Of a DNA stretch of 64,000 nucleotides, positions 1 to 29,402 are shown piece by piece. Where the stretch lies: positions 3,317-67,316 of the forward strand of contig JBDRPX010000015.1 in the NCBI GenBank assembly GCA_043826565.1, given 5' to 3'. The translations under genes were made by a program, and so were the position numbers. A model generated the notes under the pieces. That model was not told the DNA's origin. It ran no database searches and was given only the letters and a program-made list of their open reading frames with translations. Source of the stretch: Candidatus Omnitrophota bacterium (GTDB taxonomy: Bacteria > Omnitrophota > Gorgyraeia > B26-G9). How positions within the stretch are numbered: position 1 is the stretch's first letter; every line of letters begins with the position of its first letter.

Positions 1-150
1 ACGCGACCCAGGGGTATTCCGCGTGATAACTGTGCACAAGCAAAATCTTTTTTCTCACGCCGGAAGCGCCCTCCTGCGCGAACAGCGCGGCTACGCTGAT
101 AAACAAAAGCAGGCTTACTACTACACTAATCTTTAGTATTTTTTTGTTCA
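1..150 (-). CDS. N-terminal fragment of a secreted protein truncated by the window edge (possibly another periplasmic binding protein)
   Basis: ATG at 150 on minus strand, translation MNKKILKISVVVSLLLFISVAALFAQEGASG... is signal-peptide-like; overlaps kinase stop by 25 bp; runs off the window. Confidence 0.3.
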
Positions 151-2276
151 TATCCGTCATCTCCTGTCTGTTCTTTTAAGGCATCAAAAACATCTTTTTC
201 TTTCACTAATTTCTTATTAACCAATATTTCCCCGATTTTTTTCTTTTCCTTGATAAAGTTTTTATCAATAGGAATGGTAAAATAAAAGGCGGCGCCTTCC
301 CCGAGGATAGATTCAACCCATATTTTACCTTTATGCATTTCTACGATCTTTTTAGCTATGGTCAATCCGGCCCCGGTTCCTTCGGTATCTTCTCTTCTTC
401 CTAGACGCTGAAAGATACCAAATACTTTTTCAAAATATTTTTCTTCTATCCCCGGGCCATTATCTTTTACATAAAATTCATAATACGGATCTTTCTTTGC
501 GCATCCAATTTCAACCACTGCCTTTTCTTTATCTAAAAATTTAACCGCGTTAGAAACAAGGTTTACAAATACTTCGGTTAAGCGAATCCGGTCACAATAG
601 ACTTTAGGCAATCTGCCCCGAATAAGCATCTCAACATTTTTCTCCTTTATCGCGTACTCAAGCCTAAGCTGTACCTCGGCAAGGATTTGACTGATTTCAA
701 TTTCTTCAAACGGATTTTTCTTTCGTTCAATGCGGGATATTTCCAGCAGATCTTCTATGAGCGCCTGCATGCGATGAGCGTTTGCCTGGATCCGCGCAAG
801 AAAATCCCGGCCTTCTTCACCAAGATTATCCTGGTAGTCATCAATAACAAATTTACTAAACGCGTGAATAGACCTTAACGGCTCTTTCAAATCATGTGAG
901 ATTATATACGTAAAATCATCCAGCTCCTTATTCACTTCCTCTATTTGCTTAGTGTAACTTTGCAAAGCCTGTTCTGCTTTTATCCTTTCGGTAATATCTT
1001 TAGCTATCCCCACTATCCCGATAGGAACCCCCGCCTTATTACACATCATCGATCCGGAAAAAAGCATCGGGATTCTACTGCCGTTTTTTCTTTTATACTC
1101 CACCTCATAATTACTGATAACTCCCTGCGCTAATACTTTTTGCAGCAGGATTTCCGCATCAGCGATAAGACTAATCTGCTGGCCCTGCAATTCCGATTCT
1201 GTATATCCTAATAATTGCTTAGTAATAACATTAACCCTCTGAATTTTTCCTTCGGTACTAAAAACAATTAAAGTGTCCAGGAAATTAGCAATAATATTTT
1301 CGATGTAGGTATTGACTTCTTCTAAGTCTTTCATCATATTAAGCGTTGCCTTCTGCGAATGCGAAAGCTCCTGGGTTCGATCATCAACTTTTTGCTCCAG
1401 AGTCCGGGACCAGTCTTCAATTTTTTCCTTAGCTTCAATTAACTCATCCCGAGATTTCTTTATGGAAGCAGTCATAACATTAAAAGAAGCTGCCAATTGG
1501 CCGATTTCATCACCGGACTTAATTGATACTGTTGTTGTTAAATCTCCGGCAGCCAGCCGGCGCGTTCCTTCCGCAAGCTTTAGAATGGGAACTGTCGAGA
1601 TCCTGGCTAAGACCATTGTAACCATTCCCGCGAACACAATAATTATTAAAGTAATAATTGTTCCTGTTCTCTGCGCCGCCAGAAGCAGGGCATCGGCTTT
1701 TTCCAAAGACAAAACTATGTGGACCCGGCCAATTGTTTTTTTGATAACTGTTTTCTGGTCTACAGCTAATCTTAACTCTTTTCCCGGCATAGCGTTATCA
1801 TCAGCATAAAACAAGCCTTCTTCATTCTGGTAAAGAGTTATTCCTTCGCTCTGCACTAGCGCGCAAACTTCGTAATATCTTGTATTATTAGTTCCGCGAA
1901 ACATTTGGACATGCGTTTTTTCAGCAAGCTGGGCTTCTTCAAAAATCTCTTTAGGGATTTGAAACTGCATTTCTTTTGCCCATTTTACAGCTAACCCCTT
2001 ACCTAAATTATCATATACCGAGCAATAAACAATCTCCGCCGATCTTAAACGATCGGTCAGCAGTTCATCCAGACTTGTTTGATTGTCTGTAAGCACCCCA
2101 TACTCCGCTTCGGAAGCAAGGTTCTCGGCCAATACAACCCCCTGCTCTTTATGGTTCTGGTAAATCATCTGACGTTCATGCCGAATAAAAAACACCCCTA
2201 AAACCCCCGCCACCGCAATAACAATAGCGGTGACAATTATAATAAATTTAAAATATAGACCGATTCTAATATTCAT
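126..2276 (-). CDS. sensor histidine kinase (periplasmic sensor domain, TM, HAMP, PAS, HisKA, HATPase_c)
   Basis: two TM segments flank a roughly 170-aa periplasmic region; HAMP-like linker; H-box SHDLKEPLRSI; G-boxes DNGPGI and GTGAGLTIAK. Confidence 0.9.
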   Translation of the reverse strand: MNIRIGLYFKFIIIVTAIVIAVAGVLGVFFIRHERQMIYQNHKEQGVVLAENLASEAEYGVLTDNQTSLDELLTDRLRSAEIVYCSVYDNLGKGLAVKWAKEMQFQIPKEIFEEAQLAEKTHVQMFRGTNNTRYYEVCALVQSEGITLYQNEEGLFYADDNAMPGKELRLAVDQKTVIKKTIGRVHIVLSLEKADALLLAAQRTGTIITLIIIVFAGMVTMVLARISTVPILKLAEGTRRLAAGDLTTTVSIKSGDEIGQLAASFNVMTASIKKSRDELIEAKEKIEDWSRTLEQKVDDRTQELSHSQKATLNMMKDLEEVNTYIENIIANFLDTLIVFSTEGKIQRVNVITKQLLGYTESELQGQQISLIADAEILLQKVLAQGVISNYEVEYKRKNGSRIPMLFSGSMMCNKAGVPIGIVGIAKDITERIKAEQALQSYTKQIEEVNKELDDFTYIISHDLKEPLRSIHAFSKFVIDDYQDNLGEEGRDFLARIQANAHRMQALIEDLLEISRIERKKNPFEEIEISQILAEVQLRLEYAIKEKNVEMLIRGRLPKVYCDRIRLTEVFVNLVSNAVKFLDKEKAVVEIGCAKKDPYYEFYVKDNGPGIEEKYFEKVFGIFQRLGRREDTEGTGAGLTIAKKIVEMHKGKIWVESILGEGAAFYFTIPIDKNFIKEKKKIGEILVNKKLVKEKDVFDALKEQTGDDGYEQKNTKD

Positions 2277-2303
2277 CGTAAAAACAAACTCCTTAACCTT
2301 ATC

Positions 2304-3266
2304 TTAATAAACAATATCTGCTTCATCAAAAACTGTTTCTGATAATTCAACCTGAATGGTTTTCGCGGTTTTTTGATTTACAGATAATAATGTTTTACGC
2401 GGAAATTCGACAGAAATACTTTCAATATTTTGACCGCCCAGTATTTTTATGGCCATTTGCGCTGCCTGCCGGCCGATATCATTATAATCACTTTCTAGAG
2501 CAAACAATGCCCCCCCTTTTACATACGCCGAAGAAAACGCCATAAACGGACATTTATTTCTTAGAGTTGCCAGTAAAATTTTTTGGGTTGTATTTGGATT
2601 AAATATTAATGGGTCAACCCCTCCCCACAAACACTCACTTTCTTTTAACACCATCTCCAGGTTCGGCATTACTTGGGCAGAGTTATTTACCGGAACAGCC
2701 TGCAGCTCAAAACCATACTGGCCGGCCGCGGCTTGGGCCTCCTCCGCCATCAATGTTTTAACCTCAGACTGATAGAGCATACCGATTTTTTTCACTTCAG
2801 GAAGAAATTTTTTTATATATTTAAACTGCTCGGCAATCGGGATATTTAAGGCAACTCCGGTAATATTTTTATTCCTGCCCCCGGAGATGATGCCGCTTTC
2901 CTCAGGGTTTAAAACCATAAAAAAGATTATCGGGATCCCGGGAATATTTTCTTTAGCAAATACCGCTGCTTTTGTTCCTAAAGCGATTATACTATCCGGA
3001 GCGGATTTATTGATTTCCTGAAGAATTTGACCAAACTCAGCTTCCGGGATTCGACTCAAATCATACTCCCGGTAAAAAGCCGGAACATTATTATCTTTTA
3101 GCTCCTGCTTAAAGCCGCTAAGCGCCTGGTTATATTGTAAAATTACCCGCGAATTAAGAACTACGATATTTGCTTTCTCTTGAGCAACCCCTGGGGTTAA
3201 GCGCCACCCCCAAAAGAGAAAAAAAGCAAAAATTAGAAATCCAATCTTATAAAAATGTTTTTTCAT
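2304..3266 (-). CDS. periplasmic substrate-binding protein of the ABC-type uncharacterized transport family often paired with sensor kinases
   Basis: signal peptide; periplasmic-binding fold pattern (IVVLNS..IIALGTKAA..GVALNIPIAEQ); 27 bp upstream of kinase gene. Confidence 0.6.
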   Translation of the reverse strand: MKKHFYKIGFLIFAFFLFWGWRLTPGVAQEKANIVVLNSRVILQYNQALSGFKQELKDNNVPAFYREYDLSRIPEAEFGQILQEINKSAPDSIIALGTKAAVFAKENIPGIPIIFFMVLNPEESGIISGGRNKNITGVALNIPIAEQFKYIKKFLPEVKKIGMLYQSEVKTLMAEEAQAAAGQYGFELQAVPVNNSAQVMPNLEMVLKESECLWGGVDPLIFNPNTTQKILLATLRNKCPFMAFSSAYVKGGALFALESDYNDIGRQAAQMAIKILGGQNIESISVEFPRKTLLSVNQKTAKTIQVELSETVFDEADIVY

Positions 3267-3540
3267 ATGACAAGACTTTATTAAATTGTTTAAGTTGGAA
3301 TTAAAAAAAATCCCGAATCACTGTTCAAAAAATGAACATTTCCCCGGGCTTAAGCATTGATCAATTGTTTTTCTCTTTCAGAAATAATACTTTGCATATT
3401 AGTACCCTTCATTAGAGGTCAAACAATATAATTTGGCGTTAAAATACCTCAAAACACAAGCAGAAACACATATATTGTTGTATTCTATATTATATTATGC
3501 TATTGTTTGATGTCAACGTTTTTCTTTAATACACATCTAA

Positions 3541-3574
3541 TAAAAAAGGCGGTCAAGCTGAAAGCTTGACCGCC
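3541..3574 (-). terminator. intrinsic terminator downstream of response regulator gene
   Basis: GGCGGTCAAGCT-GAAA-AGCTTGACCGCC hairpin preceded by A-run on plus strand (T-run in minus sense). Confidence 0.5.
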
Positions 3575-3590
3575 TTAACTGCTTTAGCTA

Positions 3591-4202
3591 TCACTCAGAA
3601 TCACCTTCTCCAAAACTAGGTCTTTTAGAAGGAGCATTATTAAACGCATCAGAAATTATTGTCTTCATTTCATATAAGTCGAACGGTTTAGCCAAAGAAG
3701 TATACGCGCCCATTTTCGCCGCCTCCAGATTCGTCTGCAATGTGCGATGAGCGCTTAGCATTATTACAGCAATATTGATATCTATTTCCTTAATTCTTTT
3801 TAATGTTTCTATCCCATCGATTCCCGGCATGCGGATATCCAGCAAAACCAGATCAGGCCGGTCTTTGCGCACAATTTCCAAAGCTTCGGTTCCATTGGAA
3901 GCCTTAAGCACTCGATATTCCTTTAATACTCTTTCAAAATAATCCTGAATTGTTTGGTCATCATCAACAATCAGGACAGTCTTAGCCCCTTTTGCATTGC
4001 TAACCGTATTAAACTGTTCAAGCTCCGGCTTTTCTTTAAATTGGCTCATCAGCCAAGCATCGATTAAGTCTTTGCGGAAACGCCATTCACTAGCAACTTT
4101 AAACGCGGGGATTTTCCCCTGCCTGGCCAGTTTATAAATAGTCATCTTATTCATTTGAAGATATTCTGCCACTTGAGCTATGTCCAGCAAATTTTCCGCC
4201 AT
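3591..4202 (-). CDS. response regulator with N-terminal excisionase/MerR-type HTH (HTH_17) and C-terminal receiver domain
   Basis: N-terminus IAQVAEYLQMNKMTIYKLARQGKIPAFKV matches excisionase-family HTH; the C-terminal half (LIVDDD..LLDIRMPGIDG..) is a CheY-like receiver. Confidence 0.8.
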   Translation of the reverse strand: MAENLLDIAQVAEYLQMNKMTIYKLARQGKIPAFKVASEWRFRKDLIDAWLMSQFKEKPELEQFNTVSNAKGAKTVLIVDDDQTIQDYFERVLKEYRVLKASNGTEALEIVRKDRPDLVLLDIRMPGIDGIETLKRIKEIDINIAVIMLSAHRTLQTNLEAAKMGAYTSLAKPFDLYEMKTIISDAFNNAPSKRPSFGEGDSE

Positions 4203-6764: not shown

Positions 6765-9700
6765 CTATATGGACTGGCTCACAAGACTCTGCGGGGACAT
6801 ACTGCTAATTGATTGTTTTGCTACTTCCGGAGATCTTCCCGTCTGTTCAGTTTTTCTTGGCCCAATAACCCCTAAAGCATTAAGCATCTCTATTAATTGT
6901 TTAATATCTTCCTGATACTCTTGCATGTTCGGAAGTCTTTTCCCTATTTCTACCCAACGCTGCTGACTATGCTCCCACTCTCCGCGGGCCGCGTCAATAT
7001 CCCCGGCATTAGCAAACTGCAACACATGAACAAATAATGGTCTGACTTTTTTGTGCAGCCTTTGTAATATTTTTTGTTGTTCTTCGGTCAATCCATGTAA
7101 TGGATCAACGGCGAATCTCTTTTGTTCTTTTTGTCTATATTGATTAATTTCTTTTTCAATAGACTCTCGCAATGCCCTTACGGCATGTTGGACTGCCGAA
7201 GATAATCGCCCGGGATTAGGGAATTCCTGCTCTAACATTATCAATACATTATTACATTCTTCTGCGCTATTTGCCTCTTGCAAATATTCCTCTATCAAAC
7301 TTAATGCTGCTTGAGCTTCTTTGGAAATTTCTCCTTCTTTGGCCCGCATGGGGACTGGCGCTGAAGGCTCAAGGATTTCCGGAGGAATTTCTCTTTGTCT
7401 TCTTCCGGGATATTCGCCGCGAGGTTTTTGTAAACTTTCTGCCAGATTAACCGCGGCTTCGACATCCGGAAATTTTTTACATAAATCCAAAAGCTCTTGG
7501 TTTTGCCCGTGCTTGTTTTTATCTCGGTAATGCGTGCGCTCTATTTTTGAACGCCAAGACATAAAAACCATGGCCCTTCTTTGGGTTATCTGAGAAGATC
7601 CTTCAGACAGTAATTGCTGACGCGCATCCTTAATGGCCTGATTTTGTTTAACTGCTGCTGGAATTTCTACTGCTTCTAAATCTTGCTGAAAATCTTGAAC
7701 ATTCCCATATTTCGTTTGCTCAACTGCCTCTAAAACCCGAACTCCTTCTTGTATTACTCTTGCCTCAATGTCAGCTACTAGAGGGTCTACAATTTTTTGG
7801 ACAACGATCATTCCACGAATCCCTTCAGGAAAAATCGCCGTGATTTGTTCGCGAACTTGCGCCATCGTGCTGCACTGCTGCGGATCAAACTGTACTGCTT
7901 TTTCTTTTGCCTGTTCTATCTGCTGAACGATCTCTTTAAACTGAGCCATTCTTTGTTCTGCCTGAGCAATTCTCTCCTGCTCTTGCCTGATCTTTGCCTT
8001 ATAAGTATCTTTTGCCTGCTCTAATAATGGGCGGGCCTCCGGAAAGTCTTTTACTTTTTCAAATGCTTCACGCGCACCGGTGATAAACTTTTCAATGTTG
8101 TCTATAGACACGCTTTGAAGTTCTGCAAGCGTTTGCCGGAATTCCTGCAAAGCTAAGTTTTTTCGCACTAATGTTTTGAATTCTTCTTTCTTTTGTTCTA
8201 CCCATTCCAGCAGCTTTGCCGCGGCTTCAACTTTTTTGTTTTCCTTTAAAATATCCGGGATCAACCTCTCAATTTTATCATCAACATCATTCTCCGCAGC
8301 GCAACTTGCCAAACTAAAATTTTCTATAGTTTGTTTTGTTTGCTGAATTGCCCCATTAATTCGCCTTTGTTTTTCTTCTTGGTCTAAACGGTCCTGCACC
8401 TGCCATCTCAGCTTTATTGTTTTTTCCCTCAGCCAACTAAAAAATGCTCTTGCCTCTTTGTCTAAACGGTTATCTCGAAGAACTTGCGGAACTAAAGCCT
8501 CAATCATTGTATCCGCAACATCAAGTGTCTCACATTGCGTAGAATCAAAATCTTCAATAGCTTTTGTTACAGCAACAATAGCTGCATCAATATTTCTTCT
8601 TAATGTTTCAGCTTGCTGTGTTTCTTTTTCTACTCTCACGGCAACTTCAGCCTGTTTTCCCAGCTTAATTGTTTCTAGCTCACCCATTAGCCGCATTACC
8701 CGAGGATCATTAGAATTACGCCGAAGCAATTTAGGAATAAGGCCATTTATTGCCCTATTAACATCTTCTGCGCTTATCAATCTGCTTGTATCTAAGTTCT
8801 GCGCATCATCTCGACATTCAGCAATTTTCGTTCCAATTAGAGGTTCTCTCTGCTCATCAGCATCAGCCTTTTTATCCAGAGCTTTAAGCCTCGCTTCTGC
8901 CGCCACAACTCCCGGACGATGTTTACTAACAAATGTCTCCACTATCTGCTGTGCCTGATAATCTTTTTTTAATTCAGCAGGCAAGGCTTCTGCAACTGCA
9001 GTATCAAAACCCCTTGTTTCCATAAACGAATCTATTTGCTCGGCCACTTGAGCTAAATTTACTCTAAGCTGTTCAATTTGATCTTTTCTTTCCTGCCGCG
9101 CCTGCTGGAAAATCTTTATCTTTGCCTCTGCGCCTTCCATTACCTGCCTTACCTTTGCTTTTACCTTTTCATTATCTTTTAAGTTCTTTGGGATCATTTT
9201 CTGTAAAGCCTTTAAAGCTGCTTCCACACTCTCATGTTCTTCAACTTTAAAATTACCCAGCTTTACACGTAATCCTTGGGGGAATTTTTTTTGTAGTTTT
9301 TCCCGGCGTTTTTGCTTAGCAGCTTCTGCTTTTTCTGCGTGCAATTGTTTATTTTCTTTGGCTTCTTTTTCTTTTTTTCTTTTATTAATCAAGCGCTCAA
9401 AAAATCTCTGGGTTTCATAATTAAACAACAAAAAACCAACGACAGCCACGCCCACAGTAATGGCTGTAGCAATATATTTATCCGGGATAGTTGCATAGCA
9501 AACAACTCCCACTCCTGTAACCACTCCTAAATATATGAGCGCAATATCTTTAGATCCTTTAGCAAAACGATACTTACCAATTTTCATGCGTTGCGGAACA
9601 TATCGTGGTTTATGGGAAAAACCCTGATCTTGAGAAGTCTTTTTTATCTGGATATATATCTGGGAGAAATTTTGTCCAAGAACTTGATTGCTAATTTGCA

Positions 9701-9833
9701 GCTTCGGAGATAAACACTCTGCAGCCCCAGAAAAGACAACACTCCCTGCTCCGGCCCAAGCAAAATCAAGCAAAAGAAAGGCCTGGATCAATATAATTGC
9801 GGTGATTTTAAGCCACTTATGTCTTTTAATCAT
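6765..9833 (-). CDS. membrane-anchored giant coiled-coil protein (1022 aa), function unknown
   Basis: N-terminal hydrophobic segment plus two TM helices at about residues 95-140, then roughly 850 aa of K/E/Q/A-rich heptad-like sequence; single long ORF. Confidence 0.6.
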   Translation of the reverse strand: MIKRHKWLKITAIILIQAFLLLDFAWAGAGSVVFSGAAECLSPKLQISNQVLGQNFSQIYIQIKKTSQDQGFSHKPRYVPQRMKIGKYRFAKGSKDIALIYLGVVTGVGVVCYATIPDKYIATAITVGVAVVGFLLFNYETQRFFERLINKRKKEKEAKENKQLHAEKAEAAKQKRREKLQKKFPQGLRVKLGNFKVEEHESVEAALKALQKMIPKNLKDNEKVKAKVRQVMEGAEAKIKIFQQARQERKDQIEQLRVNLAQVAEQIDSFMETRGFDTAVAEALPAELKKDYQAQQIVETFVSKHRPGVVAAEARLKALDKKADADEQREPLIGTKIAECRDDAQNLDTSRLISAEDVNRAINGLIPKLLRRNSNDPRVMRLMGELETIKLGKQAEVAVRVEKETQQAETLRRNIDAAIVAVTKAIEDFDSTQCETLDVADTMIEALVPQVLRDNRLDKEARAFFSWLREKTIKLRWQVQDRLDQEEKQRRINGAIQQTKQTIENFSLASCAAENDVDDKIERLIPDILKENKKVEAAAKLLEWVEQKKEEFKTLVRKNLALQEFRQTLAELQSVSIDNIEKFITGAREAFEKVKDFPEARPLLEQAKDTYKAKIRQEQERIAQAEQRMAQFKEIVQQIEQAKEKAVQFDPQQCSTMAQVREQITAIFPEGIRGMIVVQKIVDPLVADIEARVIQEGVRVLEAVEQTKYGNVQDFQQDLEAVEIPAAVKQNQAIKDARQQLLSEGSSQITQRRAMVFMSWRSKIERTHYRDKNKHGQNQELLDLCKKFPDVEAAVNLAESLQKPRGEYPGRRQREIPPEILEPSAPVPMRAKEGEISKEAQAALSLIEEYLQEANSAEECNNVLIMLEQEFPNPGRLSSAVQHAVRALRESIEKEINQYRQKEQKRFAVDPLHGLTEEQQKILQRLHKKVRPLFVHVLQFANAGDIDAARGEWEHSQQRWVEIGKRLPNMQEYQEDIKQLIEMLNALGVIGPRKTEQTGRSPEVAKQSISSMSPQSLVSQSI

Positions 9834-9988: not shown

Positions 9989-10297
9989 CTATTTCTTTTG
10001 GGCTTTAACGCGTTCAATATATTTAAACGCATTGAAGGATGCCTTTTCTTCCTGCCGCAGTAATTTATAAAACTCACAGTTAACACAGTTTTTCTCTTTG
10101 TCTTTTTGCGCGCCCTCAACAATTCCTACGCAAAAAGTCCCGCAGATATAAACACAGGCCCGGCCGCCGTTAGTGCCGCCGCAAAATCCCTGCGCCTCTT
10201 TTGCTTGCGCCGCCGGACAAACACCTAATTCCTTAGATTTAGCCCCATTAATGTTTCTGCCGCAGCCTTTAAATTCCCAACAATTCTGTTTTAACAT
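9989..10297 (-). CDS. small cysteine-rich protein, two-CW-domain-like (paralog 1)
   Basis: NCWEFKGCG..GTNGGRACVYICG..CVNCEFYKLLRQEE; shares motif order with the 32404..32703 product. Confidence 0.6.
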   Translation of the reverse strand: MLKQNCWEFKGCGRNINGAKSKELGVCPAAQAKEAQGFCGGTNGGRACVYICGTFCVGIVEGAQKDKEKNCVNCEFYKLLRQEEKASFNAFKYIERVKAQKK

Positions 10298-10365
10298 TAC
10301 CCTGCCTTTTTTAATAATAGTCTTATTTCTTATTATACTCCCAAAAAAAAGAAGAAGGCAATACT

Positions 10366-10414
10366 AAAAAATAAAGAGCAGCTTCTACATAATAAAAGCT
10401 GCTCTTTATTTTTC
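10366..10414. terminator. bidirectional intrinsic terminator
   Basis: AAAGAGCAGCTT...AAGCTGCTCTTT hairpin flanked by A-run and T-run. Confidence 0.45.
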
Positions 10415-10437: not shown

Positions 10438-10641
10438 CTAGTAACTATCTTCTTCCGATGCATCAGCATTATCAAAATACCCATCCAGGGTACTACAAGC
10501 CTTCAAACGAACCGGAGCAACAGCGATAATTTCAAATTCTAGGTCGCAAATGGAACAATATAAAAGATCGCCAACATCTAGATCGTCATCCCTTTCTTCA
10601 ATAACCCTTTTACATTGCAAACATTTCACACTGGCACTCAT
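10438..10641 (-). CDS. LysW-like zinc-ribbon protein with acidic C-terminal tail
   Basis: CxxC..(7 aa)..VGDLLYCxxC..EFEIIAVAPVRL.. then acidic tail ADASEEDSY; pattern parallels amino-group carrier protein LysW. Confidence 0.45.
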   Translation of the reverse strand: MSASVKCLQCKRVIEERDDDLDVGDLLYCSICDLEFEIIAVAPVRLKACSTLDGYFDNADASEEDSY

Positions 10642-17217: not shown

Positions 17218-20200
17218 TCATATCGCCTGTTCCACCAGAGCAGAAATGCCGGTCATCGGATTAGCATTAATTTCCGATTGTAATCCACTATTGTTTGTTT
17301 CTCCGAGAAGAACATCAATCCTCACGATCTTCTTATCTCTCAGCTGATGCGCAATATTTTCATCAGTAATGGTGTCGCCAACAAATACCGCGGCAAGGTC
17401 TTTCCCTTCCAAATCTCGATAAATTCTGATCTGCTGTGGAACCACCGCACCTTCTCCAAAGGTATCCTTAAAATTTCCATCCAGGCTTAAAACATTATGA
17501 TAGACCAGTAAAGTATTTTTAAACTGTTTCGCGGCAAAGCTGCCCCGAGGCAAAACAATCTGTTTTTTCTCCCCGTTAACCATAAAAACCGCTTCCTCTT
17601 CCTGTGCCAGGAATAACTCGCCTGACAAACAAGGACTATAAGTAAATTGTTCCTGCCCCTGATTGTTTACACTAAAATAAGTCTCTCCCCAGAGCAGTTT
17701 TTCCAAAAACCATTTCATTACTTCGGAGTTATAACCGGAAAACCGGGCATAGTGTCCACGGCCTTCTTCATCCTGGTATGAGACATTCTGAAAGAAAGCA
17801 CGTCCGTAAACCAGCTCATCCATATACGGCGCGATATTGCGATGAATATCCGCGTAAAACTCGCTGATCAGTCCTGCTCCCAGCAATTCCGTCATGAATT
17901 TCCCTTCCTGATGTTTAAACGCACCATTCTCCAGATGCCCGCGCGGAAATACACTTTTCCGCCTTGTTACCAATTCCACCTCATCATCTTCAGTCAACGG
18001 TTCATTCAACCGATAATTGCCTGTCTGCGCGTTATACAGCTGTGTCTGCTGTACTTTCCGGTAGACTTCCCGGGCCTGCTGCGGATTTTCTGCGGTCTGT
18101 AAATCTCCGACAACGCCTTCCAGAAAAAGCGGCAATGACTTCCTGACAAACTTTTTGGCTTGGACCGCGGGAAAATCTTCCGCGGCCATTATTTCTTTGC
18201 CGCTCTGGTCGCGCAAGATCTCATATTCAGTCATATCATAATAAAAATACGCATGTGTTAATCCACTCTGCGGATCTTTTGCTTTGTCCAAAGCAGCACG
18301 CAGTTTCTTTTTTCCATCATTTAAAAAAGCTTTGATCTCCGCCACGGTTACGCGGTCGGTTTTTCCGGAAACACCCAGTCGTGTCTGAGCATTATATTCT
18401 TCCTGAAAGATATTGCTTTTATCCCAGAAATCGAAGCATTCCGTATCAGACTGAAAATCTTTTTTATCCACATGCTGATCCAGGACATCGGCAAGCTTCC
18501 GGAAATACGCAGCTTTTTCTTCTGAAACCGCCACCGTATCCGTCCCATTAAACTGCATAGCGTCAAAATACTGCTCCCAGGATTCAAAAAGAAGATATAA
18601 GTCTGTAGTGACCCGTGCCGATGAGCCGAAATAGGCAGCCAGTTTGCTTAAGGAGTCATCCCACCCAGGCTTACCCGCTTTAAATTCCACGCCCACTCCA
18701 TGCGGATCAAGATCGGCAATTTTCATCAGCAAAGTCAGCATTTTCTCAAAAGCAGAACTATAAAAAATATCCCCGGTTTCGTAATCGTAACCGGTATGCA
18801 CTTTATCTCTTGCCTCTTTCTGCCGGGATTCATTTCGCCTGCTTCTTTCTTCTACATGTTCCAGCACTTTTCGCTGTAGAGGTTTACCGTCTACTAAAGC
18901 ATATCTGCCGTTTGCCCCATAGCGGGGTTTTACTTGCACCGTAGATTCAAAGGCCGTAAGCTGAGTTTGGAAAAGAAGTTCTCTAAATCTTTTTCTATTC
19001 TCCTCTTTATCCAGAGGAAATAAACGTATAAAATTCTTAAAAAAATCGTTAATATATCCCACGCTATGATCCTGCCAATATCCCTCGCCAAAATCAGCCT
19101 GCTGAATAACCTCGGAAGAAGCGATTAGATCACGTAAAAACGCGTCTTTATCCTTGATCTTAATACCTTCTTTATCGATAAATTCCACTAATTTACGCAA
19201 TATAAAACCGTTTCGCAAAAAATCAGCCAGTTTATAAACATCTTTCCCTTTGACATAAGTTAATAAAAACCGGGGCAATCTTTTTTTCCCTCCGGCATAT
19301 TTCAATATTCCCGCCCCAACTCCCATGGGATTATATCCGTCTAATTGGACTAAAGACAGAAACCGCAGAATATCCGTTTCCGCCAGATCCGGATCGACCA
19401 GCATATTTGTCCGCCGGTTTTGCAGCACATCACGAAAATTACCCATACCTTCTTCCCGGTCAATGATGACAAAATTACCGTAATCACGTTCCTGATCAGC
19501 GTGCTTTACCTTGTTTTCATATTCCACGACAATGCGCCCATCCTTAGTTCGATATTCTGCTTTCACCGCCGGCATACCGCCCCGCAAATAATTTTCCAGT
19601 TTGCTCTGAGCAAACCAGGCATTAAGTTTCTTATCCCGGGAATGTATCCAGGCATCTTCGTATAACCATTGTTCGATGATCGCATCCATTTCCGCTCTTT
19701 TTTGCCGGAAATATTCTTTATTTAAAATTTTCCCCTCAAGCGCGGCAATCTTCGGGTCAAGCTCTCCGCTTTTTAACTTTTCCTGCGCTGATATCTGTCC
19801 ATAATATGAATAAATCGTATGTTCATTTCTACCTTCTCCCAAACGCACCCGGGCAAAATTCATAGCGCAGAAATGCTGGCCGCCGTCTTTATTATTCAAA
19901 CGATCGGACTGCTGCCGGGATTGGAATTCTCCAAAATCAGCGCCAAAAAAACGCGATGCCACCCGCCGGTCACCTTCCCCGAATACCCTGTCTTTATCCC
20001 AAACCGGAGAAATGGTTACAGAAGCATCAGAACTGAAGCTGGTATAAAAATTATTCAACTCATCGACAACCGGCTTCCCTCTCACATTGTCAACATTATC
20101 TTCTATTGCCCTGGCCCGGGTGAGCACAGTATTGCCTCTGAGCTCAACGGAATTGAAATACTGCCCGGTATGGGACATATTGTCCCGGGTCCATTTATTC

Positions 20201-20988
20201 TGCCCCGGGGACATGATCTTGCGCATTCCTTCCAGCACCTCATACTCTATTGCCGCTTGTTCAAACCCGGGTAACTTTCTCACTGTAAATTCCCGCGCGA
20301 ACAAAGGAACTCCTTCCCGCGGAACTTGATTATATGTGACTTCGACTTCTATACCTAAGGTAAGGTTTCTCTCCCGGATCTTTTTCTTTCCATTGCCGAG
20401 ATATTCAATTAATTCATTTTCTATTTCATAACCTCTTTGCAAAGAATCTTCCGGAAGAAAAGGAATATAATCAAGAACCATGTCTTCGCCGCCAAACAAA
20501 GTCCTGACCTTGAGAAAGGTTCCAAACCCCTGATTCAATACTTGTTCCATAGCCCTGTCCTTAGGCAAAAACTCCATGATCGGATCATCTTTAGTGGTAA
20601 CGTTGATACTGCTGATCTGCTCTCCTTTATTTACACTGAAAATCCCCAAACTTCCGCCGACCGGGGTGATCGTATCAGCGTATACAGGGAATTTATCGAA
20701 ATTTTTTATGACTACGCATTTATTTTCCGCGTCATAAACAGCCTCAGTTTGTCTTTTTTCATCAAGCTCCCGCATCCTTTGATCTATCAGATAAGCAACA
20801 TGTAATACTTCGGCAGTTTTCACCATGTGAAATGCCTGAAGAAAAACTGCATTATCTATTTCGATCCGGGGAGATAAACAGTTTTCAGAAACCGGCTCAG
20901 CGTACGCATGACTCTGCGGTAGGAAAAATAAGTTCTGGTTGAGTAAAAAAACGCTGATAAGAAAAATGCCGATATATTTGTTCCGCAT
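17218..20988 (-). CDS. large secreted protein (1256 aa), function unknown (possibly carbohydrate-active)
   Basis: signal peptide MRNKYIGIFLISVFLLNQNLFFLPQSHAYA; single long ORF with no low-complexity regions. Confidence 0.7.
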   Translation of the reverse strand: MRNKYIGIFLISVFLLNQNLFFLPQSHAYAEPVSENCLSPRIEIDNAVFLQAFHMVKTAEVLHVAYLIDQRMRELDEKRQTEAVYDAENKCVVIKNFDKFPVYADTITPVGGSLGIFSVNKGEQISSINVTTKDDPIMEFLPKDRAMEQVLNQGFGTFLKVRTLFGGEDMVLDYIPFLPEDSLQRGYEIENELIEYLGNGKKKIRERNLTLGIEVEVTYNQVPREGVPLFAREFTVRKLPGFEQAAIEYEVLEGMRKIMSPGQNKWTRDNMSHTGQYFNSVELRGNTVLTRARAIEDNVDNVRGKPVVDELNNFYTSFSSDASVTISPVWDKDRVFGEGDRRVASRFFGADFGEFQSRQQSDRLNNKDGGQHFCAMNFARVRLGEGRNEHTIYSYYGQISAQEKLKSGELDPKIAALEGKILNKEYFRQKRAEMDAIIEQWLYEDAWIHSRDKKLNAWFAQSKLENYLRGGMPAVKAEYRTKDGRIVVEYENKVKHADQERDYGNFVIIDREEGMGNFRDVLQNRRTNMLVDPDLAETDILRFLSLVQLDGYNPMGVGAGILKYAGGKKRLPRFLLTYVKGKDVYKLADFLRNGFILRKLVEFIDKEGIKIKDKDAFLRDLIASSEVIQQADFGEGYWQDHSVGYINDFFKNFIRLFPLDKEENRKRFRELLFQTQLTAFESTVQVKPRYGANGRYALVDGKPLQRKVLEHVEERSRRNESRQKEARDKVHTGYDYETGDIFYSSAFEKMLTLLMKIADLDPHGVGVEFKAGKPGWDDSLSKLAAYFGSSARVTTDLYLLFESWEQYFDAMQFNGTDTVAVSEEKAAYFRKLADVLDQHVDKKDFQSDTECFDFWDKSNIFQEEYNAQTRLGVSGKTDRVTVAEIKAFLNDGKKKLRAALDKAKDPQSGLTHAYFYYDMTEYEILRDQSGKEIMAAEDFPAVQAKKFVRKSLPLFLEGVVGDLQTAENPQQAREVYRKVQQTQLYNAQTGNYRLNEPLTEDDEVELVTRRKSVFPRGHLENGAFKHQEGKFMTELLGAGLISEFYADIHRNIAPYMDELVYGRAFFQNVSYQDEEGRGHYARFSGYNSEVMKWFLEKLLWGETYFSVNNQGQEQFTYSPCLSGELFLAQEEEAVFMVNGEKKQIVLPRGSFAAKQFKNTLLVYHNVLSLDGNFKDTFGEGAVVPQQIRIYRDLEGKDLAAVFVGDTITDENIAHQLRDKKIVRIDVLLGETNNSGLQSEINANPMTGISALVEQAI

Positions 20989-21516: not shown

Positions 21517-22860
21517 TTATTTTGATGAAACACGCTTTTTTAATTGATTATGTGGGATATAATAAAATTTCCTTCCTTTTTTAGTTTTTATTAAGAATTG
21601 TTTTTTAGTCAAATATAATAGGTCTCTTCTGGCCGCTTCATACGTTACACTATGATAATTTTGATGCGTGTTCATAGTATACTGCGCATTTGGATTATCC
21701 AATGCATGTTTCACGAGTGCCTTTTGCCGCTCATTCAATTCTGGGTATTTTTTAAGCATATAAGTTATTTGTTTGGATTCTTCCTGTTTTTTCGCAATAT
21801 ACTTAATAAAGGAGTTGATTGCCATCTCCACTACTCTCAGATTAAAACAGATAAAATACGTTAAATCCGAGTCATCCATTTCAGTATGCAAGAAAGCTCT
21901 TGCGTATTTAGCTGGAGCTTTTAAAAAAATTCTCGAAATCGGTAAAAATTGAAAAATCCAATATTTATTTTTCAACATATACCAATAAAATAGTGCTCTG
22001 GCTGTACGCCCATTACCATCCATGAAAGGATGTATGTATGATAAATAAAAATGTAAAATAATCGCCCTTATCACAGGGTGAGTAAACTTTTTACTAAAAG
22101 TGTCATTTGCATAATCACATAAATTTTTTATCATCCCGGGAATAGCTTCACTTGAAGGAGGTTCGTATAGTATTTGCCCCTCGTTATCACGCACACAAAT
22201 AGAATCGTCTGTAGGAATGCGAAAACGTCCACATGTAAGAGGATCATCCATGGTATCGTTTGTCATAGATTTATGTAATTCTAAAATTACTTTTTCCGAT
22301 AATGGTTGTTTTATCATATCTCTTATCATCATGATCGTTTGAAAATTATTATATATCATTTTCTCAGCATAGTTATTTGGTTTTCGCCCTGATCGTAACA
22401 TTTCTTTAGCAACTTTTCTTGTAGTCGCAGCCCCCTCAAGCCTACTAGATGCTATCGCTTCTTCCATTAAGGAATTTATAACGTATCTTTTCTCTTCTGA
22501 TTTATGAACTGAAGCATCCCCAACTAATATATGCCCACCAGCAAATTTATCCACAAAAGATAGCCGTTCTAATACCATATCCGGCAACCCATAAAAAAAT
22601 GAGTCATTTCCCTTTGTTAAAAAACAAGTTTTTCTTCTGTCTGCCTGCCTTCTTAGTTTTAAATATGACCAAACAACCTCAGGAGAAAATGATTCAGGCA
22701 TATTTAAATGTTTTAGCTTATCCCAATATATATATCCATGCCGCTGTTCCGCTGTTAAAATAAAATTATTAAGCAAATCGGTTTTTTTTCCTTCAAATAT
22801 TTGCTCCCAATTATCCTTTAGTAAAGAAGTCCACTCTGGTGTTTTTTCTGGAATTTTCAT
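21517..22860 (-). CDS. Fic/DOC family protein (AMPylation-type Fic domain)
   Basis: canonical Fic motif IHPFMDGNGRTARAL. Confidence 0.9.
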   Translation of the reverse strand: MKIPEKTPEWTSLLKDNWEQIFEGKKTDLLNNFILTAEQRHGYIYWDKLKHLNMPESFSPEVVWSYLKLRRQADRRKTCFLTKGNDSFFYGLPDMVLERLSFVDKFAGGHILVGDASVHKSEEKRYVINSLMEEAIASSRLEGAATTRKVAKEMLRSGRKPNNYAEKMIYNNFQTIMMIRDMIKQPLSEKVILELHKSMTNDTMDDPLTCGRFRIPTDDSICVRDNEGQILYEPPSSEAIPGMIKNLCDYANDTFSKKFTHPVIRAIILHFYLSYIHPFMDGNGRTARALFYWYMLKNKYWIFQFLPISRIFLKAPAKYARAFLHTEMDDSDLTYFICFNLRVVEMAINSFIKYIAKKQEESKQITYMLKKYPELNERQKALVKHALDNPNAQYTMNTHQNYHSVTYEAARRDLLYLTKKQFLIKTKKGRKFYYIPHNQLKKRVSSK

Positions 22861-24350: not shown

Positions 24351-24440
24351 TGGCGGAGAGTGAAGGATTCGAACCTTCGGTCCGGTTGCCCGGACAACGG
24401 TTTTCGAGACCGCCACATTAAACCGCTCTGCCAACTCTCC
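24351..24440 (-). tRNA. tRNA-Ser (anticodon CGA), long variable arm
   Basis: minus-sense GGAGAGT..anticodon loop CTCGAAA..variable arm..T-arm GAAGGTTCGAATCCTTC..ACTCTCC-G-CCA. Confidence 0.85.
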
Positions 24441-24991: not shown

Positions 24992-26161
24992 TCACTTCAT
25001 TATTGAAGAAAACAATTCATCAATTGCTTTGTAACTAATAACTTTTGTGTCGGAACGAGACTGGTTATCCTTTCCGCCATAGACTAGATAACCCGTCTTA
25101 CTTTTCGGATTAAGCTTATAATAATAATTCAGTCCCTTAAAAAAATCAGTGTTTATTGTTTTGCCTGATTTTATTTCCAGAGGAATAACTTTTGTTCCGC
25201 AATCTATTAATAAATCCACCTCATTACCGATATTATCACGAAAATAATAAATATTACTGGTATTCCCGGAATTAAAAAGAGCTTTCAAAATTTCAATAAC
25301 AATAAATGTCTCAAATAACGCGCCTTTTAACGGATGAGCGTCAATATGAGAAAGATTTTTTATGTCCAGCAAATATGCCGCAAGGCCCGGATCTGTAAAA
25401 TATAATTTTGGAGATTTAATAAGTCTCTTTCTAAAATTATTATAATGAGGTTTAAGCAGGTATACTATATAACTTGCCTCCAAAACACTCAGCCAGCTTT
25501 TCGCGGTATTATGATTTATCCCGCAATCATTAGCCAAGCCGGAAATATTAAGAATTTGGCCGGTACGTGCCGCGCATAGTTTCAAAAAAATCTCAAATTT
25601 CGAAAGATCTTTTATATTAATTAATGTCCGGACATCTCTTTCTAAATAAGTACTAACGTAAAAAGATAATGCCTCGGTAGGATTAAGTTTTTTATCATGA
25701 ATCCGCGGATAAAACCCCTTATATAATATCTCATTCACGGGAACAGATGTTTTTTTATATATCTCACTGTATGAAAACGGCAGTAATGTCGCCAAGGCTG
25801 TTCTACCAGCTAAAGATTGACTTATCGTGTTCATAACCTGGAAATTCTGACTGCCCGTAAGAATAAAAAGTCCCGGCTTATTTTTTTCATCTACAATTGT
25901 TTGAATATAAGAAGTTAAGTCCGGAACTCTTTGAATCTCATCAATTATCGCGCCCTTTTTGAAGCAGTCATGTAAAAATCCTTTGGGATCATTCCGCGCA
26001 TAATTACGCGTGTCGATATCCTCCAAAGAAAAGTACTGCAGTTTAGGAAATAACATTCTGCATAAAGTAGTTTTTCCGGACTGGCGAGGACCGGTAATCG
26101 TGACTACCGGATAATGTTTAAAATACGATAAGATTTTGGTCGCGATATTTCTTTCTATCAT
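24992..26161 (-). CDS. AAA-family ATPase with DUF4143-type C-terminal domain
   Basis: Walker A GPRQSGKTT; typical length and architecture. Confidence 0.8.
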   Translation of the reverse strand: MIERNIATKILSYFKHYPVVTITGPRQSGKTTLCRMLFPKLQYFSLEDIDTRNYARNDPKGFLHDCFKKGAIIDEIQRVPDLTSYIQTIVDEKNKPGLFILTGSQNFQVMNTISQSLAGRTALATLLPFSYSEIYKKTSVPVNEILYKGFYPRIHDKKLNPTEALSFYVSTYLERDVRTLINIKDLSKFEIFLKLCAARTGQILNISGLANDCGINHNTAKSWLSVLEASYIVYLLKPHYNNFRKRLIKSPKLYFTDPGLAAYLLDIKNLSHIDAHPLKGALFETFIVIEILKALFNSGNTSNIYYFRDNIGNEVDLLIDCGTKVIPLEIKSGKTINTDFFKGLNYYYKLNPKSKTGYLVYGGKDNQSRSDTKVISYKAIDELFSSIMK

Positions 26162-26247: not shown

Positions 26248-26610
26248 TCAGATAAGTTTTTTTATTTCTTCGATCACTGATTCACCCCGATTACTTTTAG
26301 TTGTAAAAGCATCCGGATGCGAAGGGAAAATTTTAAACGGCGAAGCCCCTTCAACTTTATCGGTCATAATAATTACCGGGGTTTTTAATTTTTTTGTCTG
26401 CTTAACAAACCGGCATATTTTATGCCCGTCTATATCCGCAAGCATTACATCTGTAACAATCAGATCCGGAGAATGTGTTTCAATCTTTTCTAATCCGGAC
26501 TGGCCGCTTGTCGCGGTAATGACTTCATAACCTTCCCCAGATAACTTATCTCTTAAAACAGCAAGGATCAGCTCATCATCATCAATAACCAGGATTTTTT
26601 TCTTTTGCAT
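26248..26610 (-). CDS. single-domain response regulator (CheY-like receiver)
   Basis: KKILVIDDDELI..VTDVMLADIDG.. Confidence 0.8.
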   Translation of the reverse strand: MQKKKILVIDDDELILAVLRDKLSGEGYEVITATSGQSGLEKIETHSPDLIVTDVMLADIDGHKICRFVKQTKKLKTPVIIMTDKVEGASPFKIFPSHPDAFTTKSNRGESVIEEIKKLI

Positions 26611-26698
26611 AGTATTGTCTTATAATTATTGTTTACAAACAATTCAATGTATCATTATATAACATTATATGCCTTGCTGTGCTTAAAAACAAGTAGTT

Positions 26699-27460
26699 TT
26701 AAGAAATTTTCGATATACCGCAAACAGGACATGCCTGCATTTTTAAAGGTTTTTCCAGACTGCTAAGACGCAGAAGAGCTTCATCCTGCAAGATTTCTTG
26801 GGTAGGGCCGTCAGCAGTAATCCGGCCCTGATGCAGAACTATTGTTCTCTGGCAAACATCCATCGCCATATCTAAATCATGCGTCGCAATAATTTTTGTA
26901 TGCTGAAATTTTTTTAACAGCTCGATCAGGCCGCGCCGTGATTTTGGATCCAGGCTTGAAGTCGGCTCATCCATAACCAGAATATCCGGTGACATTGCCA
27001 AAACAGTCGCGATCGCTACCGATCTTTTTTCTCCCTGGGAAAGCTTGTAAGGCGGCCGTTTGCTTAGATGCTGTGCCTGTACTGTTTCCAGCGCCTGGCT
27101 AACTGCTTTTTCTACTTCTTCCCGGGTAAAACCAAGATTTAGCGGGCCAAACGCAACATCATCAAAGACTGTGGGCATGAATAATTGATCATCCGAATTT
27201 TGAAATACCATACCCACGCTCCGGCGTACTGCATCAAGATTCTTGATTGTAATAACATGTTCGCCAATGCGCACTTCTCCCTGCGAAGGAGATAAATAAC
27301 CATTTAACTGAAGCAAAAGAGTTGACTTGCCCGCACCATTTTCTCCGACCACAGCCACCGACTCTCCATGCAATATTCGAAAAGAAACTCCGTCTAAGCC
27401 CGCAGTCCCGTCCGGATATTTATAGTGAAGATCGCGCGCTTCCACAATATGATGACTCAT
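26699..27460 (-). CDS. cbiO: ECF-type cobalt/nickel transporter ATPase component
   Basis: Walker A GENGAGKST, signature LSQGEKRSVAIA, Walker B ILVMDEP; start set at MSHH where ATG overlaps cbiQ stop (ATGA), good RBS spacing. Confidence 0.85.
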   Translation of the reverse strand: MSHHIVEARDLHYKYPDGTAGLDGVSFRILHGESVAVVGENGAGKSTLLLQLNGYLSPSQGEVRIGEHVITIKNLDAVRRSVGMVFQNSDDQLFMPTVFDDVAFGPLNLGFTREEVEKAVSQALETVQAQHLSKRPPYKLSQGEKRSVAIATVLAMSPDILVMDEPTSSLDPKSRRGLIELLKKFQHTKIIATHDLDMAMDVCQRTIVLHQGRITADGPTQEILQDEALLRLSSLEKPLKMQACPVCGISKIS

Positions 27461-28269
27461 TTCCATGCTCCTATTAAAAGTTCTCCTATTTTCATCGGAA
27501 TGTTTATGCCTCTGAATAACGCGAATACCCCGATCCACGCAAGCGTAAAAATAATTTCCTGCCGGCGGATTTTCATTGTTTTAAGCATCCGGACATTGCC
27601 GTCAAACCCCCGGCAGCACATAGCCAGATAAATTCTCTCGGCTCTGTCTAAAGTCCGCAAAAGCAAATGGCCGATCAAAGGAATGAAAGTTTTAAACCCC
27701 ATGACCCCGGATTTAAATGTCCTCATCGCCCTGGCCCGCACCATGCGCTCAGCCTCATCGGTCAGAACAAATATATACCGGTAAAAAAACAAGAGCTGTA
27801 CCACAAAATATTTAGGCACCCCAAGTTTTAGCAATGCCTGAGCAACCGCGTTGAATCCGGTAAGAGAAACCAAGATCAGCGCGGCTGTGACCGTTAAAAG
27901 ACAGCGTATAAATATGGATAAAAAGGATATCCAGCCTCCGGAAACGCCTATGGGGCCTAACTGCAAAAGTATCTCTTGATCAATCAGCGGATTAAACATT
28001 CCGACTAATATCGCAAAAGGAGACGCCCATAATACTTTCTTAAATAAATATAACCGCGGCAGACGAGCGAAAGTTATTAATATTACCGGATAGATAAAGA
28101 ACGGCGTCAACGCGGAAAGCGCATACTTATCAAAAGATACCACGCTCAAAATAAAAACCAACGTAGTAATTAATTTAGCCCGCGGATCCAAACGATGCAA
28201 AAAGCTGTTCCCGGAAGCTAGGGTATCCATCTGTCCAATATCAAAATAATTTTTACCGATATTATTCAT
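27457..28269 (-). CDS. cbiQ: ECF transporter transmembrane T component
   Basis: multi-TM; position between cbiM and cbiO. Confidence 0.8.
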   Translation of the reverse strand: MNNIGKNYFDIGQMDTLASGNSFLHRLDPRAKLITTLVFILSVVSFDKYALSALTPFFIYPVILITFARLPRLYLFKKVLWASPFAILVGMFNPLIDQEILLQLGPIGVSGGWISFLSIFIRCLLTVTAALILVSLTGFNAVAQALLKLGVPKYFVVQLLFFYRYIFVLTDEAERMVRARAMRTFKSGVMGFKTFIPLIGHLLLRTLDRAERIYLAMCCRGFDGNVRMLKTMKIRRQEIIFTLAWIGVFALFRGINIPMKIGELLIGAWK

Positions 28270-28283
28270 AAACCCGATCTTTT

Positions 28284-29321
28284 TTAAGCTAAGCTTTTTC
28301 TTTGGCTTTGCAATCCCCAGCCAATACCGGCCGCCAGCAAAAGCGTTAATGCTCCTCCAATCAAACCGGACAGGGAAGTTCCCGCGTCAATTACCGGCCA
28401 TGATTGTTTTTGTTCTTGTTCCGGATTGGCAATATCCTCGGCTTGTTTAAATCCATAGTCCGGGAAAAAAGCCGTCTTCTCCTGCACTGAGGATAAAGAA
28501 ACATGCATTGCCTTACTGCTTTCCAGCTCTTCCTGTCCGGAAGTTTTAAACATCGCCCACTCCAGTCCATCCGGATTAGATGACGCAAACCAACTTAAAA
28601 TCCCTCCGGTAAATACCGCGGCAATTAGCAGCCCCGTTAAAACTTTCCGTGTATTACCGGTTTCGGCTGGTTTCTTGTGATTAGCTGTTTTTAAAATTTC
28701 CGGACGCGCGTTCCAAATAAACATAACCACCGCGGCAGTAACCAGGCCCTCCACAATACCGATAGCCAGATGAATCGGCTGCATTAAAACAACAAATGTC
28801 TTAAACGGCAGTTCCGATATTCCCGAGCCCAGGGTTTCCAATACAACGCTAAAAGCTCCCAGCTGCAGGCCAATGATCGAGGCAATAACCGCAGCGATCA
28901 TAATTTTTCCCCGGGCAGAACTGTCCCCGGCAATCTTGCGATAAAGAAACGGATACGCGATAAAACAAGAAAAAAATCCCATATTAAAAATATTACATCC
29001 TAAGGCTAAAAGTCCGCCGTCGGCAAAAAACAGCGCCTGGATTATGAGAACCGATGCCATTACCAAAAAAGCCGCGTAGGGCCCCAGAAGAATCGCCAAG
29101 ATCATTCCTCCGCCCAAATGTCCGCTGGACCCGGTAGCCGGAATACTGAAATTAATCATCTGCGCGGCAAAGATAAACGCTCCCAATACTCCCATTAAGG
29201 GAATTTTGCGCTCATCTGCTTCTTCCTTAACTTTTTTCGCGCTAAACCCGATAAACCCCGCAGTAGCCGCCCACATCCCCACGCCCACTGCCGGAGAAAT
29301 CAAAGCATCTGCCATATGCAT
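28284..29321 (-). CDS. cbiM: cobalt/nickel ECF substrate-capture component CbiM fused to a PDGLE-type (CbiN/NikN-like) C-terminal extension
   Basis: N-terminus MHMADALISPAVG..., GSSGHLGGG motif; C-terminal part contains SSNPDGLEWA and an extra TM. Confidence 0.8.
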   Translation of the reverse strand: MHMADALISPAVGVGMWAATAGFIGFSAKKVKEEADERKIPLMGVLGAFIFAAQMINFSIPATGSSGHLGGGMILAILLGPYAAFLVMASVLIIQALFFADGGLLALGCNIFNMGFFSCFIAYPFLYRKIAGDSSARGKIMIAAVIASIIGLQLGAFSVVLETLGSGISELPFKTFVVLMQPIHLAIGIVEGLVTAAVVMFIWNARPEILKTANHKKPAETGNTRKVLTGLLIAAVFTGGILSWFASSNPDGLEWAMFKTSGQEELESSKAMHVSLSSVQEKTAFFPDYGFKQAEDIANPEQEQKQSWPVIDAGTSLSGLIGGALTLLLAAGIGWGLQSQRKSLA

Positions 29322-29402
29322 AATTGTCTCCTTTCTTCTAATTTAATCTCGCCATGCTTTCCGCCATAAAGCATGGCGGACAAGTGTGGCTGGTGTTTAT
29401 TT

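Follow-up and report, generated by a model that had tools for sequence, protein, structure and literature searches.

Two stand-alone two-CW domain proteins of a Candidatus Omnitrophota bacterium, members of a widespread family linked to signal-transduction domains

Two short genes for cysteine-rich proteins lie 22.1 kb apart in the open reading frame (ORF) listing of a genomic contig of a Candidatus Omnitrophota bacterium, and the question raised by this locus is what such proteins are and what they may do when no other domain is attached to them. An earlier note on this DNA had taken both for independent copies of the so-called two-CW domain. Here that proposal is followed through the whole stretch of DNA that was analysed (64,000 nucleotides, called the window throughout this paper) and through the homologs of the two genes in other genomes. 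The first gene (copy 1; 9989..10297, minus strand) encodes a stand-alone two-CW protein of 102 aa that belongs to a variant subfamily, called subfamily B here; the second (copy 2; 32404..32703, minus strand) encodes one of 99 aa that belongs to the canonical subfamily A.

Both ORFs were confirmed at these positions, as were the three ordered cysteine motifs that they had been said to share, namely NCWEFKGCG, GTNGGRACV and CVNCEFYKLLRQEE in copy 1 and NCWEFKKCG, GKNGGRACW and CLSCEFYKVVRQEE in copy 2. The first Cys-Trp motif (C6-W7, in N-C-W-E-F) is found in both copies, and the second reads C48-W49 in copy 2 and C48-V49 in copy 1. The two proteins are 47% identical over 94 aa in an ungapped alignment (BLASTP, E = 2e-26), and therefore their likeness is far beyond chance. 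The earlier note had named the right family: the NCBIfam model NF045718, two_CW_domain (80 positions, curated cutoff 35 bits), matched both copies over practically its full length, with 78.9 bits for copy 1 (model positions 1-80) and 97.5 bits for copy 2 (model positions 2-80). When the proposed check against NCBIfam and Pfam was run, the two-CW model was the one matched; Pfam gave no family for either copy at E <= 1, zinc-ribbon and zinc-finger profiles included, and neither a Fer4 match in Pfam nor a CxxCxxCxxxCP motif was found in the two proteins. GenBank contains entries 100% identical to both, each named 'two-CW domain-containing protein [Candidatus Omnitrophota bacterium]'. A profile built from 117 homologs and run against all stop-to-stop frames of the six-frame translation of the window recovered these two copies (E = 2e-45 and 2e-35) and no third one, the next-best match having E = 0.87. 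Both proteins are hydrophilic and basic (pI 9.1 for copy 1 and 8.8 for copy 2), no signal peptide or transmembrane segment was noted in either, and the GC content of the genes (44%) is inside the range of their neighbours. That both genes encode complete, soluble, cytoplasmic single-domain two-CW proteins is the best explanation of these sequence features.

The earlier note had also allowed that the two ORFs might be fragments of a larger, disrupted sensor gene, and this reading, in which both are pseudogene remnants of two-CW sensor kinase genes, was checked against the local sequence. Fused two-CW kinases are known in other genomes, and the window itself contains a gene for a PAS-HAMP histidine kinase (126..2276). 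However, the ATG of copy 2 is directly preceded by an in-frame stop, and the frame of copy 1 is open for just 22 codons (66 nt) before its ATG (stop-to-stop frames). Both ORFs end after the two-CW tail, with no HisKA/HATPase_c or other transmitter in the same frame, and no kinase-like sequence adjoins either copy in any frame. A purine-rich ribosome-binding site precedes each copy, that of copy 2 being GGGGG, 7 nt before the ATG. Copy 1 is further preceded, 35 nt upstream of its start codon, by a promoter-like site, TTGCCT-18 nt-TATAAT (10332..10361, minus strand; 10 of 12 matches in a consensus scan, a consensus match only), and by a hairpin with a perfect 20-bp stem and a T run (10368..10412, minus strand; read from the sequence); this terminator-like hairpin would close the upstream gene, which encodes a 67-aa protein, and insulate copy 1 as its own transcription unit. 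The length and C-terminal tail of the copies also agree with more than 100 intact stand-alone homologs (family-mode length 98-100 aa), and the proteins most similar to each of them are likewise about 100 aa long. The flanking stops, the separate ribosome-binding sites and the family-typical length refute the fragment reading, which we consider extremely unlikely. Copy 2 is separated from a divergent GIY-YIG gene (32959..33291, plus strand) by an intergenic region of 255 nt (32704..32958, from the ORF listing), in which no sigma-70-like promoter was scored for copy 2. On its other side a GH16 gene starts 49 nt after copy 2, and since no terminator was scored between them, co-transcription of the two genes is possible.

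The domain is compact and comprises about 95 residues. Nine cysteines are present in each protein, seven of which are family-invariant (C6, C12, C27, C48, C56, C71 and C74) and stand in both copies at the spacing C-x5-C-x14-C-x20-C-x7-C-x14-C-x2-C. All 117 close homologs keep these seven, as do 440-452 of the 453 domains that were aligned, fused ones included, and W7 of the first CW motif is invariant in all 446 aligned domains compared at that position. Also conserved are G18, G41, the NGGR loop (residues 43-46) within the Gly-rich GxNGGRAC segment, the CxxC(E/D)FY motif and a C-terminal amphipathic helix, and an eighth, variable position occurs at residue 39 (Asn, His, Cys or Leu). The two further cysteines of copy 2, C14 and C24, occupy positions at which the homologs have Arg (115 of 117) and Leu (98 of 117), respectively; the codons of this pair are at 32632..32634 and 32662..32664 of the window, and the paired gain could be a disulfide or an extra pair of ligands. 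Compared with the NF045718 family, both copies share its length, seven cysteines, Gly-rich loop and CxxCEFY motif; copy 2 differs by the atypical C14 and C24, and copy 1 by CV at the second CW motif, by the change at position 39 and by its EHG...F..Y tail.

An AlphaFold2 (AF2) model of copy 2, calculated from a 41-sequence alignment, reached a mean pLDDT of 85.6 and a pTM of 0.77 and contains several short helices and no strands (helices at residues 6-10, 21-24, 28-31, 48-51, 64-72, 75-87 and 91-98). The model of copy 1, from its own subfamily alignment, has a pLDDT of 73.6 and the same helix order, with residues 52-61 disordered. The fold of the two-CW domain as modelled is all-helical and not a zinc ribbon. 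No PDB structure was matched by Foldseek with an E value under 7.5, a profile run against PDB sequences gave nothing, and therefore these searches detected no solved relative of the fold. These features bear on the reading that the cysteines bind structural zinc only, the domain being a protein-protein (or nucleic-acid) interaction or adaptor module without sensing of its own. The basic character of the proteins (pI 8.8-9.1), the conserved amphipathic helix at the C-terminus and the promiscuous placement of the domain, N- or C-terminal and including receiver-domain (REC)-two-CW proteins in which an output or interaction domain would be expected, are in keeping with such a role. On the other hand, Zn(Cys)4 sites of a purely structural kind would not be expected to involve an odd number of invariant cysteines such as seven, the exchange of Asn, His, Cys and Leu at position 39 would be seen more typically at a labile or tunable site, and no likeness to a known zinc finger or ribbon was found in Pfam or in the fold search against the PDB. 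We regard the adaptor reading as rather unlikely overall. For the REC-two-CW architectures taken by themselves, the domain could equally serve for output or interaction instead of sensing.

The earlier note had presented the two-CW domain as usually fused to PAS/kinase sensors and had seen something special in its occurrence as independent genes. Neither view agrees with the distribution of the family. A length of at most 115 aa (mode 99 aa) is found in 114 of the 120 homologs listed for copy 2, and they are 51-65% identical to it over the whole length, the C-terminal tail beyond the NCBIfam model included. An exhaustive profile search against 1.84 billion representatives, clustered at 50% identity, returned 1796 two-CW clusters at E <= 1e-3 and 1026 at E <= 1e-10; in the best 150 of the 1796 clusters, 83 have lengths of 140 aa or less and 43 of 200 aa or more. 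In a species scan that used one genome per species, at least 599 pattern matches and at least 565 confirmed species loci were obtained, and 80 loci were kept. These come from Omnitrophota, Planctomycetota, Desulfobacterota, Nitrospirota, Acidobacteriota, Ignavibacteriota, Bacteroidota, Fibrobacterota, Chloroflexota, Spirochaetota, Gemmatimonadota and Armatimonadota, from one cyanobacterium and from Methanomicrobiales archaea. The two-CW gene is small and separate in about 76 of the 80. Several copies close together are likewise common, two or more two-CW ORFs being present within 12 kb in 7 of 82 loci. True fusions among the kept loci number two (L049, 410 aa; L063, 426 aa), both with the two-CW domain followed by HisKA-HATPase_c; the long 'fused' ORFs in several high-GC loci (L002, L007, L082 and others) came about because each ORF was begun at the first possible start codon behind a stop, and were discarded as artefacts. 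Two-CW proteins of about 100 aa with no further domain are the common form and dominate the close relatives, and a free-standing gene of this kind is the family norm. The two copies of the window are real and correctly named, yet ordinary for the family and already annotated in GenBank.

The earlier note had further stated that the first paralog lost its second Trp. This is literally true, since the motif reads CV in copy 1, but the change belongs to subfamily B as a whole and no local loss took place. W49 occurs in 420 of 453 domains, and members of the non-W subfamily are still above the cutoff of the family model. Among the 453 domains there is tight coupling between positions 39 and 49: Asn or His at 39 goes with Trp at 49 in 418 of them, and Cys or Leu at 39 with Val, Ala or Cys at 49 in 25. 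The nearest neighbour of a sequence without W49 also lacks it in 27 of 29 cases, and therefore the change is the signature of one clade and not of repeated independent events. In subfamily B, Trp49 is replaced by Val, Ala or Cys, and Asn39 by Cys, or by Leu in a sub-branch with Cys or Ala at position 49; the C-terminal tail is distinct as well (EHG...F..Y), and the consensus reads ...DGFCGGKNGGRAC(V/A)(Y/F)I.GTFC...QGTY..K.K.C..CEFY..LK.EHG...S...F..Y. Copy 1, whose two extra cysteines are Cys39 and Cys52, fits this description, and its best homologs (62-49% identity; Nitrospirota and unclassified bacteria among them) share the non-W49 trait. Cys52 (10142..10144) occupies a position at which the subfamily usually has Thr. 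Judged from these alignments, the missing second Trp of copy 1 is a trait of a coherent subfamily and not decay. The closest proteins from other samples or taxa are 65% and 62% identical to the copies, as against 47% between the copies themselves. Because each copy is nearer to proteins of other samples and taxa than to its sister, and because copy 1 falls in the coherent subfamily B, the two are ancient paralogs and not the product of a recent duplication. The subfamily A and B copies probably have different partners or different tuning.

Although they are in the minority, fusions of the two-CW domain to PAS and kinase sensors do exist, as the earlier note had stated, both in L049 and L063 and in Pfam results for longer members. 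Among 51 longer members, HATPase_c was found in 12, PAS_9 in 8, HisKA in 7, Response_reg in 6, Pkinase in 4, MCPsignal and cNMP_binding in 3 each, and GGDEF, STAS and GAF in 2 each; NIT, CBS and epimerase domains appeared as well, and a fusion to rubrerythrin was found. Kinases have the two-CW domain at their N-terminus; at the C-terminus it follows MCPsignal (NIT-MCP-two-CW and HAMP-MCP-two-CW), REC, GGDEF, CBS and rubrerythrin, and also PAS-HisKA_2-HATPase. Every recurrent fusion partner is a signal-transduction domain, and the occurrence of such fusions, with the module at either end of the protein, supports a role in signalling. In L049 and L063 the whole stand-alone unit, tail included, is joined directly to the phospho-acceptor helix of HisKA-HATPase, so that by a Rosetta-stone argument the free two-CW proteins would work with transmitters of this type.

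A check of the co-occurrence of stand-alone copies with kinases had also been proposed. When the neighbours in 82 loci were clustered, two-component proteins were the sole recurrent family, filling 16%, 12% and 11% of downstream slots 1-3 versus about 3% upstream. This downstream enrichment is lineage-specific and due only to archaeal and Desulfobulbia loci. In Methanomicrobiales, 13 of 13 loci (in Methanoregula, Methanospirillum and Methanosphaerula) have a gene for a REC (121 aa), REC-GAF(-PAS) (about 425 aa) or REC-GAF-HATPase (about 550 aa) protein no more than two genes away from the two-CW gene, usually convergent with it and immediately adjacent. The convergent arrangement, with one or two two-CW genes each, is seen at L001 (6347..10372), L031 (6001..8421; Methanoregula) and L048 (5526..7583; Methanospirillum lacunae), and in Methanosphaerula subterraneus the two-CW/REC pair is tandemly duplicated. 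The Methanomicrobiales loci are the best natural system in which to find the partner of the free two-CW proteins. In two Desulfobulbia loci a REC-HisKA-HATPase gene adjoins the two-CW gene. The linkage did not extend to the other bacteria, in which no conserved neighbour was found, four Omnitrophota and four subfamily B loci included, nor to the window, whose receiver-domain genes (a PAS-HAMP kinase/HTH-REC pair at 126..4202 and a lone receiver at 26248..26610) belong to other units at least 5.8 kb from the nearer copy. Two candidate links were set aside. The DVU0259 DivK-like receiver family NF045717 is adjacent to NF045718 by accession; the two-CW-adjacent receivers score below its cutoff, and so do those of the window. 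A link of subfamily B to PilZ comes down to one clear case (L088) and one weak Pfam mark (L091), which are too few; the PilZ-type proteins seen near two-CW genes are at 5586..5981 in L088, 6249..7103 in L091 and 6348..6986 in L086, the last seen by eye and without confirmation by Pfam.

The two-CW genes of the window, like those of the other Omnitrophota loci, have unrelated housekeeping or glycan genes as neighbours. When 33 window proteins were compared with 82 homologous loci by BLAST, only generic similarities of two-component, ABC and TPR proteins were detected, and neither the GH16/OprB/CbiMNQO context of copy 2 nor the coiled-coil context of copy 1 was repeated there. Directly downstream of copy 1 is a gene (6765..9833, minus strand) for a 1022-aa protein with no Pfam or NCBIfam match, in which an N-terminal hydrophobic segment is followed by Lys/Glu/Gln-rich, coiled-coil-like sequence; by eye, repeated modules of about 90 aa are visible, each with one Cys and an 'LIP..L' motif. 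The 67-aa protein encoded just upstream of copy 1 (10438..10641, minus strand) has a CxxC...CxxC arrangement and an acidic C-terminal tail, and gave a weak LysW-like match only (15.9 bits against a cutoff of 53.2). Downstream of copy 2, a co-directional run (26248..32354, minus strand) encodes a GH16 protein with an F5/8 type C domain, an OprB-family porin, CbiM-PDGLE, CbiQ and CbiO of a Co/Ni ECF-type transporter, and the lone CheY-like receiver. Such a combination of porin, glycosidase and metal transporter is unusual, and it is not conserved beside two-CW genes elsewhere. Between the two copies, a 1256-aa protein (17218..20988, minus strand) has no Pfam domain and a partial, far sub-threshold likeness to GH149 beta-1,3-glucan phosphorylase (46 bits, with the cutoff at 1150). 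Genes for a Fic/DOC protein and for an AAA_14/DUF4143 ATPase lie at 21517..22860 and 24992..26161 (both minus strand) beside tRNA-Ser(CGA), and tRNA-Ser(UGA) and the GIY-YIG gene are just upstream of copy 2, the tRNA genes being at 24351..24440 and 33640..33727. These sites could be borders of mobile elements or islands.

Some of these contexts would suit another reading, in which the stand-alone proteins transfer electrons or handle metal, in the manner of small ferredoxins or metallochaperones, and only the fused forms sense. The proteins are small, Cys-rich and very highly conserved, with 51-65% identity even between archaea and bacterial phyla, their gene is usually an orphan without a regulatory neighbour, two ferredoxin genes and the Wood-Ljungdahl cluster adjoin one subfamily B locus, a rubrerythrin fusion exists, and copy 2 is 3.1 kb (two genes) upstream of the CbiMNQO Co/Ni transporter. 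Yet the copies have no match to Fer4 or any other redox-protein family of Pfam, the recurrent fusion partners are all signalling domains and not oxidoreductases, no linkage to a metabolic enzyme is conserved across more than 80 loci, and the CbiMNQO, GH16 and ferredoxin contexts are not repeated at other two-CW loci. We regard an electron-transfer or metal-handling role as a rather unlikely explanation of the free form. Small size and high Cys content could also point to precursors of ribosomally synthesised Cys-modified peptides (RiPPs), but no radical-SAM enzyme, cyclase or transporter is conserved beside the two-CW gene in more than 90 loci, and no leader/core pattern is apparent. That possibility, very remote in our estimate, is practically ruled out by conservation over the whole length, by the confidently folded AF2 domain and by the embedding of the same unit in large signalling proteins.

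The reading favoured here, with moderate confidence and on the strength of sequence comparison, is that the two-CW unit is a metal-holding sensory or regulatory module whose free form would act in trans on a signalling partner. In such a scheme the seven cysteines would most likely bind metal in one or more centres, as an Fe-S cluster or as Zn, position 39, where Asn, His, Cys or Leu stands beside seven fixed cysteines, may supply a variable eighth ligand at a tunable metal site, and the module would sense or transmit a redox- or metal-related state. In the fused form it would do so while covalently attached to HisKA-HATPase, REC, MCP, GGDEF, Ser/Thr kinase/PP2C or STAS; the stand-alone form, by analogy with these fusions, would dock non-covalently onto its signalling partner, possibly through its surface and C-terminal helix. 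Counting against this reading, bacteria in general show no conserved neighbour of the gene, and the genes around the two copies of the window and around the other Omnitrophota copies are unrelated ones. A bolder version of this reading is possible and is put forward tentatively: the domain may represent an uncharacterised metal-cluster (probably Fe-S) sensor fold shared by Bacteria and methanogenic Archaea, the free 100-aa form a diffusible 'third component' that would dock onto receiver or kinase proteins, and subfamily B a ligand-switched branch that responds to a different signal, in which case this genome would carry two distinct single-domain sensors.

Several known systems help to place the proposed function. 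CZB, a small sensory module of the cytoplasm that binds metal, folds as a bundle of four helices and has a 3His/1Cys zinc site; it occurs C-terminal in chemoreceptors, joined to GGDEF or stand-alone. The two-CW domain shows the same spread of architectures, so that the two may work alike, but it differs in its seven invariant cysteines and short helices and has no sequence relation to CZB (no Pfam match). WhiB-like (Wbl) proteins are helical proteins of about 80-120 aa that use four cysteines to ligate a [4Fe-4S] cluster, sense O2 or NO and dock on a partner in trans; they are not known outside Actinobacteria and their phages. They may serve as a functional analogy for the stand-alone two-CW proteins, and no homology was detectable with Pfam, Foldseek or the PDB profile search. 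In the NreB PAS domain and in FNR, a Cys-ligated Fe-S cluster acts as a cytoplasmic redox or O2 input, including in N-terminal position on histidine kinases; their folds, Cys counts and Cys spacing differ from those of the two-CW domain, which in addition occurs C-terminally and free. CZB and the WhiB-like proteins appear to be the nearest functional analogies.

For the window itself these results carry little weight, as both genes are annotatable members of a catalogued family. It is the family that is notable. It comprises about 1800 clusters and is present in at least 565 species, from Omnitrophota to methanogens, and it recurs as a part of kinases, chemoreceptors, diguanylate cyclases and receiver proteins; no Pfam model, structure or paper was found for it, and a literature search for the two-CW domain or NF045718 returned degenerate PCR primers as its sole matches. 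A characterised two-CW protein would add a new input module to the catalogue of signal transduction and would help to interpret thousands of small proteins now called 'hypothetical'.
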